From Candidatus Woesearchaeota archaeon (GTDB taxonomy: Archaea > Nanobdellota > Nanobdellia > SCGC-AAA011-G17 > UBA489), in the NCBI GenBank assembly GCA_964622835.1, contig CAZUSA010000001.1:159468-223467 (forward strand): a DNA stretch of 64,000 bases, given 5' to 3'. Below the pieces are notes generated by a model. It ran no database searches, was not told the DNA's origin, and saw nothing but the letters and a program-made list of their open reading frames with translations. Every line of letters begins with the position of its first letter. Positions within the stretch are counted from its first letter, which is position 1. This document shows positions 20,100 through 62,326 of the stretch, one piece after another. The translations under genes were made by a program, and so were the position numbers.

Positions 20100-20225
20100 C
20101 CCACTCTAGCTCAATGGTAGAGCGCACGGCTGTAGAAGATCCATGTGACGTTTGTCGCTGCGGCAATGTATGAACAATGGTCAGCCGTAACCGTGAGGTT
20201 CCAGGTTCAAGTCCCGGGGGTGGGA
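20100..20225 (+). tRNA. tRNA-Tyr (GTA) with 54-nt intron at the canonical 37/38 position (about 20136-20189)
   Basis: Hand-folded. Acceptor CCCACTC/GGGTGGG with the archaeal Tyr C1:G72 pair. D-arm GCTC-AATGGTA-GAGC. Anticodon stem CACGG/CCGTG, loop CTGTAGA after intron removal. T-arm CCAGG-TTCAAGT-CCCGG (one A-C mismatch). Confidence 0.7.
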
Positions 20226-40083: not shown

Positions 40084-40311
40084 TCAGTCTCCAAATCCGT
40101 ACCGTTGGAGGAAGCCAGTAAACATAATGAAATAACTGTCAACGTCGTATCCTTCTTTGGTAAACACTTTCAAGTCTCCTACAATATCCATTGCATGATC
40201 TTTGTCGTGTTCGTTTCCGAGTCTCAGTATTTTCATTAAGAGTGTATCCCTTTGTTTTTCATCGAGTGGCTTCCGATCGCGTGCACAGCACGGATGTACT
40301 GTTTGTTGCAT
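40084..40311 (-). CDS. Possible small hypothetical protein
   Basis: 75-aa ORF with protein-like composition (DIVGDLKVFTKEGYDVDSYF). No homology recognised. Confidence 0.25.
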   Translation of the reverse strand: MQQTVHPCCARDRKPLDEKQRDTLLMKILRLGNEHDKDHAMDIVGDLKVFTKEGYDVDSYFIMFTGFLQRYGFGD

Positions 40312-40459
40312 GATAATCAGCCTATAATTATTGATATCTTTACTTACTTATAAGAACTGTTGATATAGAATTAAATGTTTCTATACTGTATATAGTTCTA
40401 AGAAAAATTGTCTCAATTTTGAGTTACGACAGAGGGGTACTTTTCACACTTCCCAACCG

Positions 40460-41182
40460 TTGAGAAAAGACATATATGTCTCAAAGAGATTATATGATAT
40501 GGATTTTTCAATACGAAATAAACAAAATGTAGAGAGTAGGTGGAGAAAGGTTCATGAAAAAGAAAGAGCATACATTAGAGATAATAAAGAAAAGACAAAG
40601 CATTTTAGGGCAAGAATATGTGGATTTTTAGCAGGAGATGGGAATCTCCTTATTGCAGGAAAAAACAACAAACACCATAACACAGTACGATTTTTTCCAG
40701 ACCATCATTCACTAATAAAACCATATATCGAGGCTACATTAAAGGTCTACAATAAAAAACCAAAAATAATAAAGAAGAAAAATTATTATTGTTTAAATAT
40801 TGATTCAAAACCAATGGTTGAGGATATTTTATCTACAACAACGTTAGGAACCAGCACATGGAGTATTCCAAAAAGTTTGAAAAGTAATAATGAAAAAATT
40901 GAGTGGTTACGAGCGTTCTTTGATGCTGAAGCCTATGTTCATCAAAAATATATCAGAGTTCAATCAGTGAATGGAGAGGGATTAAAAGAAGTAAAAGAGC
41001 TATTAGGAGACTTGAACATATATTCAAAGATTTACGAATATATGCCTAAACAAAAAAATCATAAAAAAGTCTATATGCTAACAATAATAAGAAAAAAGGA
41101 TAAGTTACATTATAAGTCCCTCATAGGATTTAACCATACAACAAAACTTAAAAAGCTAAATTTTACACTTCAAACAAGATAA
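40460..41182 (+). CDS. Free-standing double-motif LAGLIDADG homing endonuclease
   Basis: 240 aa. Motif 1 ICGFLAGDGNLLIA. Motif 2 LRAFFDAEAYVHQ. Lys-rich. Stop is 4 nt before the tRNA at 41187. Confidence 0.75.
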   Translation: MRKDIYVSKRLYDMDFSIRNKQNVESRWRKVHEKERAYIRDNKEKTKHFRARICGFLAGDGNLLIAGKNNKHHNTVRFFPDHHSLIKPYIEATLKVYNKKPKIIKKKNYYCLNIDSKPMVEDILSTTTLGTSTWSIPKSLKSNNEKIEWLRAFFDAEAYVHQKYIRVQSVNGEGLKEVKELLGDLNIYSKIYEYMPKQKNHKKVYMLTIIRKKDKLHYKSLIGFNHTTKLKKLNFTLQTR

Positions 41183-41186
41183 TCAT

Positions 41187-41321
41187 GCCACGGTCGCATA
41201 ATCTGGTATTGCACAAATCGTTGTTGTAGAATATATTACAGCGAGTGTAAGCCTGGAAAAACCAGAAGATACCAGTAAGCTTGGCCCTTTGGGCGTCCCG
41301 GTTCAAATCCGGGTCGTGGCG
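41187..41321 (+). tRNA. tRNA gene with intron(s); isotype unresolved
   Basis: Clear acceptor GCCACGG/TCGTGGC with G discriminator. T-arm CCCGG-TTCAAAT-CCGGG. D-loop AATCTGGTA. About 60 extra nt between D-arm and T-arm, including hairpin CTGG-AAAAA-CCAG and GCCC-TTT-GGGC. The anticodon stem could not be placed by hand; candidates are TTG (Gln) or GTT (Asn) after a noncanonical intron. Confidence 0.5.
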
Positions 41322-61429: not shown

Positions 61430-61493
61430 TTTAGTTCTCATACTTCCCATCCACTAACGAAAATAACTTATTGATATCTTATAATTTATTGCT

Positions 61494-62223
61494 GTGATTT
61501 CAAAGAACAATGCAACAGCAGAATTAGTGGGTTTAAGCTTCGGAGATGGTAGTTTAACGTATAGAAAGAATACGAAAAAATTACGATTCCAATTAAGAGG
61601 TGATGCAACTGAAGAAAGAAAACATTATACGGAGTTTATCATCCCGTTATTTAATAAAGAAATTATGAGACCTTTATTTTATAGAAATGTTGGAACAGTA
61701 TATGATAAAAAAAGGAAATTGTTTTGGCATTTCTGTAGAAAGTAAAAAAATTAATAATTTGCACCACACTCTTGGAATTCCAGTTGGTAAGAAAAATAAT
61801 CTAAAAATTCCTTTATGGATAAAAAATTCTGAAGAATACAAAAAATCCTTTTTGAGAGGGTTATTTGACACTGATGGGTGTATCTATTTTTTGAAAAACA
61901 CTTCTGAAAAAAATCCAAGAATTCACAAAAGAATTTGTCTTACAATAACACTCTGCTCAAAAAATATGATAAATAAAATTTCAGAAATTTTAAAGGGTTT
62001 AAATATCGGACATGATATCAAAGAATATCAACCAAAAAATAAAAATTGGCAAAAATCATATACTATACGGCTTTCTGGAGGAAAAAGAGTCATCCAGTGG
62101 TTTAATTGTATTAGTTCAAATAACCCTAAACATAAAACAAAATTTGAAGTATGGAAAAAACAAGGATTTTGCAGTCCCAAAACAACATTAAAACAAAGAG
62201 AAAGAATTTTAAAAAGGAATTAA
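61494..62223 (+). pseudogene. LAGLIDADG homing endonuclease gene interrupted by a frameshift at an A7 run (61707-61713)
   Basis: Frame-0 ORF 61494-61745 carries motif 1 (LVGLSFGDGSLTY). Frame-1 ORF 61687-62223 carries motif 2 (LRGLFDTDGCIYF). Removing one A joins ...VYDKK to GNCFGISVESKK in one about 243-aa ORF. Confidence 0.6.
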
Positions 62224-62240
62224 AACATTTCAACTATAAT

Positions 62241-62326
62241 GCGGGGGTCCGATAGCCTGGTCAATTCGCTATGGTTGAGGGCCATAGGGCTTAGTGCCTA
62301 CGTAGGTTCGAATCCTACCCTCCGCA
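62241..62326 (+). tRNA. tRNA-Leu (GAG), class II, no intron
   Basis: Acceptor GCGGGGG/CCTCCGC. D-arm CGA-TAGCCTGGTCAAT-TCG. Anticodon stem TATGG/CCATA, loop TTGAGGG. 15-nt variable arm. T-arm GTAGG-TTCGAAT-CCTAC. Confidence 0.8.

Follow-up and report, generated by a model that had tools for sequence, protein, structure and literature searches.

Introduction

Archaeal LAGLIDADG endonucleases typically reside in ribosomal RNA (rRNA) introns and in inteins, and homing endonucleases as a group insert at or near the site that they recognise. Free-standing homing endonucleases are known mainly from phages and organelles, and the phage enzymes that home without an intron include SegB of T4, which lies in a transfer RNA (tRNA) gene cluster, the Seg/Mob genes, and F-CphI beside psbA. 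Here we analyse 64,000 nucleotides of contig CAZUSA010000001.1 from a Candidatus Woesearchaeota archaeon, hereafter the window, which hold two LAGLIDADG homing endonuclease genes (HEGs), HEG1 and HEG2. The family to which HEG1 and the decayed HEG2 belong is large, is found in DPANN archaea (genomes of Woese-, Pace- and Nanoarchaeota type) and keeps a constant position in the 5' flank of specific tRNA genes on the same strand. We favour, with a probability of about one half, the reading that both are free-standing homing endonucleases tied to, and homing into, specific tRNA genes, with a cleavage activity and a mobility that we infer from sequence comparison.

Group I introns carry homing endonucleases into bacterial tRNA genes and DPANN rRNA genes (PMC13011429, PMC6125680); the LAGLIDADG genes of DPANN archaea have previously been reported in rRNA group I introns only, and 39 of the 39 archaeal group I introns in that study lie in rRNA (PMC6125680). 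These intron-borne enzymes share with the reading favoured here the use of tRNA or rRNA genes as conserved targets, but HEG1 lies outside the tRNA and has no ribozyme intron, and Rfam found neither a group I intron nor any other of its intron families in the window. Multi-intron tRNA genes with non-canonical bulge-helix-bulge introns are described from intron-rich archaea (reviewed in PMC4090602), and the tRNA-Ser(GGA) gene beside HEG1 resembles them in combining a canonical intron at position 37/38 with a non-canonical, relaxed-motif intron at 29/30; what is new in the window is the attached endonuclease gene.

In fold, in both motifs, in the catalytic Asp/Glu at the motif ends and in a domain of about 190 residues, HEG1 resembles I-DmoI, from an rRNA intron, and the endonuclease domains of PI-PfuI and the VMA inteins. 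It differs in standing alone with what appears to be its own promoter, in an extra N-terminal segment of about 38 residues, and in occupying a tRNA 5' flank where they occupy an rRNA or protein-coding host gene. In behaviour, the free-standing phage endonucleases would be its closest analogues: SegB, Seg/Mob and F-CphI are likewise intergenic, beside a conserved gene presumed to be the target, and patchy among relatives, and SegB is tRNA-linked as well. The phage enzymes are, however, GIY-YIG or HNH proteins of viruses, whereas the HEG1 family is LAGLIDADG and resides on cellular archaeal chromosomes. Unlike the phage systems, too, the open reading frames (ORFs) of the HEG1 and HEG2 families overlap the tRNA promoter, and often the tRNA itself, with one protein clade for each tRNA species. 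A literature search, with most subscription journals outside its coverage, found no description of LAGLIDADG genes flanking archaeal tRNA genes. The family is apparently undescribed, and to that extent the search of this part of the literature agrees with an earlier reading of the DNA letters alone (the sequence-only reading), which had called the arrangement new.

Results

Endonuclease genes abut specific tRNA genes

The window has archaeal gene content (EF-1alpha, S10, RpoD, archaeal signal recognition particle RNA), and its closest public relatives are metagenome-assembled genomes labelled Woese-, Pace- and 'Nanoarchaeota'. The two gene pairs are as follows.

40499 to 41182, forward strand: HEG1, free-standing double-motif LAGLIDADG endonuclease gene, 227 amino acids (Pfam PF14528, homologues, conserved acidic residues, AlphaFold2 model)
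41187 to 41321, forward strand: pre-tRNA-Ser(GGA) gene, 135 nt, with exons 41187-41216, 41251-41258 and 41278-41321 (in-silico splicing)
61494 to 62223, forward strand: HEG2, LAGLIDADG gene of a clade other than that of HEG1, frameshifted (Pfam, alignment)
62241 to 62326, forward strand: tRNA-Leu(GAG) gene, intron-less, 17 nt past the HEG2 stop (ARAGORN/Rfam-type calls)

HEG1 and HEG2 are the only LAGLIDADG ORFs in the window, and each adjoins the 5' end of one of its six tRNA genes on the same strand. Only four nucleotides, TCAT (41183-41186), separate the HEG1 stop from tRNA-Ser(GGA). The sequence-only reading had noticed this spacing and the second pair before the tRNA-Leu gene at 62241; both layouts stand, but HEG2 turns out to be a frameshifted gene.

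A protein search returned 36 HEG1 homologues of 33-61% identity. In every one with DNA context a tRNA-Ser gene begins 0-33 nt past the stop or overlaps it, and the genes upstream, which are unrelated host genes, differ between contexts, of which there are at least six. The HEG1-family loci, with the distance from the endonuclease stop to the tRNA-Ser gene, are these.

Window, L001 and L002: 4 nt; upstream elongation factor 1-alpha (EF1a) and S10
L003, L004 and L005: 0 nt; upstream EF2, EF1a and S10
L006 and L007: 27 nt; upstream esterase
L010 and L011: 5 nt; upstream serine hydroxymethyltransferase
L012: 27 nt; upstream archease/RtcB
L120: 33 nt
L008 and L009: stop codon within the D-loop; upstream triose-phosphate isomerase

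The neighbour is tRNA-Ser(GGA) in six of these contexts (window, L003, L006, L010, L012 and L120), and a different Ser-type tRNA with other introns in L008 and L009. Thirteen further HEG1 homologues have C-terminal tails that are translated tRNA: the tail A[AV]IA with its stop corresponds to the 15 nt at which the tRNA begins (GCC-GYG-ATC-GCA-TAA), NLVWHR to a D-loop and GSNPG to a T-arm. In L012 (746-2298) the locus lies directly downstream of the genes for RtcB, the tRNA splicing ligase, and archease, which may be coincidence.

The HEG2 family comprises at least 168 proteins and at least 426 metagenomic loci, of which we analysed the best 80, 78 with an in-frame stop. A strict acceptor-plus-T-arm detector placed the start of a same-strand tRNA between -73 and +69 nt from the stop in 57 of the 78. 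Another 13 tRNAs were recognised on reading the sequence, having been missed by the detector because they contain introns or because the ORF spans the entire tRNA, and three loci end at a contig edge yet show the 5' part of a tRNA. In all, about 73 of 78 (~94%) abut or overlap a same-strand tRNA, with four loci without a tRNA and one opposite-strand, convergent tRNA as the exceptions. As background, the same loci show 12 tRNA-like starts over 427 kb, which amounts to 0.0065 for each 230-nt span, and ARAGORN alone gives 64 abutting tRNAs against 15 elsewhere. The adjacency of endonuclease and tRNA genes is thus beyond chance in both protein families, and the tRNA association for which the sequence-only reading wanted relatives checked was found in all HEG1 contexts and in nearly all HEG2-family loci. 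The intact HEG2 homologue of L013 repeats the layout of the window, rpoD-(GNAT)-HEG-17 nt-tRNA-Leu(GAG). In the convergent case, L200 (~2200-2290), a tRNA-Ile(GAT) faces the endonuclease ORF from the opposite strand, and the two overlap at their 3' ends.

When the proteins are arranged in a neighbour-joining tree, they fall into clean groups that follow the tRNA species. The HEG1 clade goes with Ser(GGA), a large clade with Arg(TCG), and four neighbouring clades with tRNA-Leu, namely Leu(TAA), Leu(CAA), Leu(GAG), which includes the window's HEG2 and L013, and a Leu with anticodon loop YTAAGG (AAG); Gln and Thr are single cases. Since upstream flanks are not conserved between tRNA paralogues and sister protein clades lie beside sister tRNA genes, the proteins would be expected to recognise the tRNA gene body.

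Such a pairing could also arise passively, if selfish or accessory endonuclease genes with no recognition of tRNA persist at a spot where insertion does no harm to a compact genome and where a terminator or processing site is provided by the tRNA. In that case the clade-to-tRNA pairing would go back to single insertions long ago and to vertical descent since then, and the varied upstream neighbours would be expected from rearrangements that cannot part genes 0-30 nt apart. In favour of this explanation, the ORF ends at or beyond the tRNA TATA box rather than inside the tRNA, and a terminator is absent between the two genes. However, the adjacency of the four tRNA-Leu isoacceptor clades in the protein tree suggests jumps between similar tRNA genes and not random landing, only about 5 of 78 HEG2-family members are located elsewhere, and known homing endonucleases insert at or near their own recognition site. 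We regard a passive haven as unlikely, though it deserves to be taken seriously.

Two further observations concern the HEG2-family loci. About 16 of the adjacent tRNA-Leu genes (L015, L139, L142-L152 and others) have the anticodon loop YTAAGGN, with A at position 34 (AAG); to our knowledge A34 tRNAs are not expected in archaea. In a sub-clade beside tRNA-Arg(TCG) (L169, L179, L183, L185, L186, L189, L193, L195, L197, L205 and L218), a conserved, divergent ORF of 41-43 amino acids (MTGKxKKMNYPExYLIRVDKKLKEKLKKLGSKKVREHLEK) lies on the minus strand 86-135 nt upstream of the endonuclease gene, and by eye its product looks like a ribbon-helix-helix protein. In the intergenic region that the two share lie a pair of TATA boxes and an inverted repeat (CTGTAATAC and TTGTATTAC), with one of its arms after each box, and the small ORF with this repeat could form a repressor-operator control of the endonuclease.

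HEG1 has the hallmarks of a LAGLIDADG enzyme and HEG2 has decayed

The HEG1 ORF runs from 40460 to 41182 on the forward strand and can be read from a TTG at 40460 to give an alternative product of 240 residues, the length assumed in the sequence-only reading. The ATG at 40499 is the start in all 30 aligned HEG1 homologues, and a public gene call (P0001) gives the same product of 227 residues; the true start is therefore most likely this ATG, and the earlier claim of a complete double-motif ORF holds in all but its length. Exact look-ups of the 240-residue product and of P0038, the truncated HEG2 product recorded from public assemblies, returned no matches.

HEG1 matches the Pfam family LAGLIDADG_3 (PF14528) with E=1.1e-13 and 51.7 bits, against a cut-off of 22.5 bits, and both motifs are present (GFLAGDGN and AFFDAEAYV). 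Among 31 sequences the acids at the catalytic positions are D47, which is invariant, and E144, conserved in at least 90%. A HEG1 profile finds PI-PfuI (E=2e-16), VMA inteins and I-DmoI. The AlphaFold2 model (pLDDT 95.4, pTM 0.91) has two alpha-beta-beta-alpha-beta-beta-alpha domains packed through their motif helices, and its top Foldseek matches are PI-PfuI (E=1.6e-11) and I-DmoI (E=2e-10), with TM-scores of 0.6-0.75, as well as VMA intein endonuclease domains. The additional N-terminal segment is helical and conserved, and protein-family searches detected neither a Hint domain nor an extra DNA-binding domain. By every testable feature of its sequence and predicted structure, HEG1 is a member of the LAGLIDADG family, encoded neither in an intron nor in an intein.

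HEG2 is interrupted by a frameshift in a run of seven A (61707-61713), which leaves the ORFs 61494-61745 and 61687-62223; judged from its reading frames it is a pseudogene or would need a frame slip to be read. The repaired HEG2 protein aligns to HEG1 with 24% identity. The corresponding acids of the HEG2 family (42 sequences) are D18, conserved in at least 90%, and D127, which is invariant.

The interval from S10 to HEG1 holds an ORF of 75 amino acids (orf75, 40084-40311, minus strand) that is divergent from HEG1. Neither Pfam nor NCBIfam matches it, the other HEG1 loci examined lack it, and we dropped it as a candidate partner of HEG1 in a module. The P0004 contig has a 78-residue minus-strand ORF at the equivalent position.

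Selection, decay and empty loci

For pairs of endonuclease genes with unsaturated dS (synonymous divergence), dN/dS is 0.08-0.15, by which measure the genes are under purifying selection. Occupied loci are rare: in a scan of a genome collection with a tRNA-Ser D-arm pattern, 3 of 124 tRNA-Ser loci had an endonuclease gene upstream, as did 1-2 of the 84 other tRNAs in the scanned loci. One relative, L133, keeps the synteny EF1a-S10-...-tRNA-Ser(GGA) and lacks both the endonuclease gene and the intron; its EF1a and S10 are 74% and 63% identical to those of the window, compared with 71% and 63% for L003, which carries the gene. Decayed copies include HEG2 and the L008 gene, with a stop after motif 1. 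The coexistence of intact, decayed and empty states fits the life cycle of a homing endonuclease. The sequence-only reading had suggested comparing the same tRNA loci in related genomes, and presence and absence were indeed found there, but no recent transfer.

Several observations weigh against homing. We found no pair of genomes in which the endonuclease is more similar than the housekeeping genes (between the window and L003 it is 54% identical, S10 63% and EF1a 71%), and an all-against-all blastn of the 80 loci revealed no recent transfer, that is, no high endonuclease identity between unrelated flanks; only ancient divergences of 64-75% or near-identical whole contigs appeared. Nor was any within-population polymorphism for presence of the gene detected in the loci compared. 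HEG1 (29.4% G+C) and HEG2 (27.8%) are the 700-nt stretches of lowest G+C in the window (mean 37.2%, standard deviation 3.1), but their third codon positions are ordinary and the low G+C stems from a Lys/Asn/Ile-rich composition, so it gives no support for a foreign origin. Partner tRNAs without introns, Leu(GAG) and many Arg(TCG), would leave self-immunity unexplained for a target within the tRNA. The data agree just as well with long vertical descent and many losses, and lasting purifying selection at a fixed locus is also expected of a domesticated gene.

Domestication is accordingly one serious rival: a vertically inherited LAGLIDADG protein with a host role at the tRNA locus, for example as a DNA binder that regulates or protects the neighbouring tRNA gene. 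WhiA, a LAGLIDADG-derived transcription factor of bacteria, offers an analogue, and it is among the fold matches of HEG1. Strong purifying selection (dN/dS near 0.1), a position kept across genomes whose EF1a is only 71% identical, the failure to detect recent horizontal transfer, and an upstream motif common to both endonuclease genes of one genome (see below), which suggests host regulation, all speak for a host function. Yet the WhiA match is weak (10% identity, rank 37), WhiA-type proteins have, as far as is known, lost the catalytic acidic residues that are kept here in both motifs, and no extra DNA-binding domain was detected that would correspond to the added helix-turn-helix domain of WhiA. 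Only about 2-6% of comparable tRNA loci are occupied, pseudogenes exist, including HEG2 in the same genome, and L133 is a syntenic relative without the gene. We consider domestication improbable on balance, albeit the strongest of the alternatives to homing.

The tRNA-Ser(GGA) gene and its introns

Before splicing, the tRNA-Ser(GGA) element already shows a 7-bp acceptor stem, D-arm, variable arm and T-arm. The sequence-only reading had seen in it an unusually long, unresolved intervening sequence; the tRNA does contain intervening sequence, and this resolves into two short and ordinary introns of 34 and 19 nt. We applied the archaeal rule by which cuts fall between the second and third nucleotide of each 3-nt bulge beside a 4-bp helix.

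41217 to 41250, forward strand: intron 1, 34 nt, at tRNA position 29/30, with a relaxed bulge-helix-bulge
41259 to 41277, forward strand: intron 2, 19 nt, at the canonical position 37/38, with a bulge-helix-bulge that has both bulges

Intron 1 has the central helix GCAC/GUGU, bulges AAA and AAG and a 7-bp inner helix, and lacks an outer helix; its central helix covaries across loci (GCAC/GUGU versus GCGC/GCGU). A strict bulge-helix-bulge scan that demands the outer helix misses it. In intron 2 the central helix is CUGG/CCAG, the bulges are AAA and UAA, and the 5-bp anticodon stem serves as outer helix. With both removed, the 82-nt product folds into a perfect tRNA-Ser(GGA) cloverleaf that has G73 and a long variable arm. 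Default ARAGORN and Rfam (at its gathering threshold, or at E<=10 on 300 nt) do not detect this tRNA, and the 'Leu(CAG)' fold offered by the intron mode of ARAGORN is poor and was dropped for the two-intron solution. The same architecture occurs in L003, L006, L010, L012, L092 and L026. The automatic cut rule gave the same splicing solution for the window, L010, L012, L092 and L120 (one intron), and manual splicing gave it at the same positions for L003, L006 and L026.

The tRNA-Ser genes of these lineages commonly have short introns, at many positions, whether or not an endonuclease gene is present. By sequence and predicted folding, the introns of HEG1-linked tRNAs are ordinary short splicing introns, and the tRNA itself is not unusual.

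The 29/30 intron is, nevertheless, unevenly distributed: it is present in 6 of 6 HEG1-linked tRNA-Ser(GGA) genes and in about 5 of 33 HEG-free alleles, the latter read by eye (hypergeometric p of about 1e-4, phylogeny ignored). For the HEG1 clade one could therefore imagine collaborative homing, for which the cyanophage F-CphI/psbA intron case is the model, in which the endonuclease cuts intron-less tRNA-Ser(GGA) near 29/30, the 34-nt intron destroys the site, and the two spread together. It also speaks for this model that the intron-less, HEG-free alleles of L077 and L130 have exons identical to the window's spliced product from the D-arm to the anticodon arm. On the other side, phylogeny makes the loci non-independent, other tRNA-Ser isoacceptors and HEG-free alleles (L092, L026, L085 and L091) have an intron of this same type, and other clades sit beside intron-less tRNAs, such as many Arg(TCG) and the Leu(GAG) of the window and of L013. 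Such clades mean that introns cannot be the general mechanism of immunity, and for the HEG1 clade itself we think collaborative homing quite improbable.

The introns also bear on the possibility that HEG1 is the relic of an intron-encoded endonuclease, whose ORF originally sat in a bulge-helix-bulge intron of tRNA or rRNA type until a rearrangement placed it outside. Its closest characterised relatives, I-DmoI and PI-PfuI, are indeed intron- or intein-encoded. However, we tried to place HEG1 in a giant leader or intron bounded by a bulge-helix-bulge and dropped the idea: the only pairings bracketing the ORF in five loci were at chance level and not conserved. No tRNA-like half was seen on reading the sequences upstream of HEG1, the downstream tRNA is complete, HEG1 has its own TATA box, and the layout is stable over hundreds of loci. 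We therefore give such an origin hardly any credence. The related proposal of the sequence-only reading, decayed or mobile elements derived from tRNA introns, finds no support either: the tRNA is intact and does not include the endonuclease gene, which no conserved bulge-helix-bulge brackets, and the introns are ordinary and common in HEG-free relatives. A short tRNA-Leu-like stretch is present upstream of the L013 endonuclease gene.

Other disrupted tRNA genes came to light in the course of this work. A second intron-containing tRNA of 126 nt (20100-20225, forward strand), found by Rfam and missed by default ARAGORN, lies in the window just upstream of tRNA-Asp and tRNA-Lys with no endonuclease gene nearby. 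In L106 (minus strand, a 271-nt element) and L119 (291 nt), a tRNA-Ser seemingly holds a second complete tRNA-Ser between its variable arm and T-arm, and these elements appear to be nested or tandemly disrupted tRNA genes.

Promoters, read-through and a shared upstream motif

The signals around the two endonuclease genes of the window are listed here.

40445 to 40458, forward strand: upstream motif CACACTTCCCAACC of 14 nt, with 40 nt between its end and the HEG1 ATG
40471 to 40478, forward strand: TATA-like box CATATATG after a purine-rich stretch, 21-28 nt upstream of the HEG1 ATG
41147 to 41165, forward strand: A/T-rich stretch CTTAAAAAGCTAAATTTTA, the probable tRNA promoter (TFB recognition element and TATA box), at -40 to -22 relative to the tRNA start, within the final HEG1 codons (K-L-K-K-L-N-F)
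61439 to 61452, forward strand: second copy of the 14-nt motif, CATACTTCCCATCC, ending 41 nt before the HEG2 start
62206 to 62217, forward strand: ATTTTAAAAAGG, in the last HEG2 codons I-L-K, TATA-like box of the tRNA-Leu gene

Seven loci (window, L003, L006, L010, L012, L013 and L017) have a canonical TATA box 21-30 nt ahead of the endonuclease ATG, which suggests that HEG1 has its own promoter and a leaderless mRNA. Upstream of the tRNA, A/T content peaks at -36 to -27, and the peak in the 66 loci that have an endonuclease gene is as strong as in the 89 that lack one; where the gene is present, the peak falls within the conserved codons at its end (K-L-K-K-L for HEG1, I-L-K for HEG2). The endonuclease stop codon of L006 and L012 even forms part of a TTTATAA box at -36 to -27. 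Past the position of the tRNA TATA box the frame runs on to the next stop, often in the tRNA (offsets -10, -15, -22, -36, -52, -61 and -73), and stops inside the tRNA occur in the D-loop, anticodon loop or variable arm.

T-runs are absent between endonuclease gene and tRNA and present after the tRNA. As there is no room for a terminator between them, the endonuclease transcripts would have to read into the tRNA, which makes the co-transcribed units proposed in the sequence-only reading plausible. Both genes, however, appear to have a TATA box of their own, so that the tRNA would not depend on co-transcription.

The 14-nt motif, with consensus CAYACTT[CG]CCAWCC, precedes both endonuclease genes of the window although their proteins are only 24% identical; exact matches to CAYACTTCCCAWCC occur at just these two places in the 64 kb. 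The same motif stands at the same spacing in another organism (L012, 2948-2961), and it is possibly a shared regulatory or regulator-binding site. We found no upstream motif common to all clades, each of which has its own conserved promoter-proximal sequence.

Discussion

The sequence-only reading had offered three explanations for the pairing, and of these tRNA-gene-targeting homing elements are the best supported, if indirectly, by the near-universal pairing, the clade specificity, the patchiness and the decay. Under this reading the endonuclease would recognise conserved DNA of its cognate tRNA gene on HEG-free chromosomes and cut in or beside that gene, and recombinational repair from a HEG-bearing chromosome would then copy the endonuclease gene in along with the adjacent tRNA, an 'intron-less homing' like that of the free-standing phage endonucleases. 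A site just upstream of the tRNA promoter would spare the essential tRNA, and the endonuclease transcripts would run into the tRNA to end at its terminator or be cut by RNase P. Candidates for self-immunity are the insertion itself, which may split the recognition site, or, in the Ser(GGA) clade, the 29/30 intron. Domestication and a passive haven remain serious rivals to homing.

Whichever explanation applies, the arrangement of endonuclease and tRNA gene is established and is far more general than the two pairs in the window: hundreds of related endonuclease genes share a single fixed niche in the 5' flank of a particular tRNA gene, with a coding sequence that overlaps the tRNA promoter. Standard tRNA finders miss two-intron tRNAs, and next to such tRNAs these genes would look like orphans in annotations. 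If the enzymes do cut tRNA genes, they would be selfish elements of a new class, directed at tRNA genes, in those archaea whose tRNA genes are the most disrupted, and the old question of why archaeal tRNA genes are interrupted would become testable by experiment. They would also amount to a naturally occurring set of monomeric LAGLIDADG scaffolds, each with a target that its neighbouring gene allows one to guess, which would be useful for enzyme engineering, and, as their mRNA ends in a tRNA, tRNA processing could control endonuclease expression.

A bolder extension, which we put forward as speculative and rather improbable, is that DPANN tRNA genes are attacked by a radiation of tRNA-gene-specific endonucleases, that the unusual intron load of these genes is partly a response, and that the 29/30 intron is the immunity determinant of the Ser(GGA) clade, spreading with the endonuclease gene. 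If true, this would be 'collaborative homing' of a protein-spliced intron and the first DNA-level mechanism for the gain and spread of non-canonical archaeal tRNA introns. Randau and Soll have suggested that disruption of tRNA genes protects against elements that target them (summarised in PMC4090602), and endonucleases that attack tRNA genes would, if this extension is true, supply a concrete selective agent for that idea.

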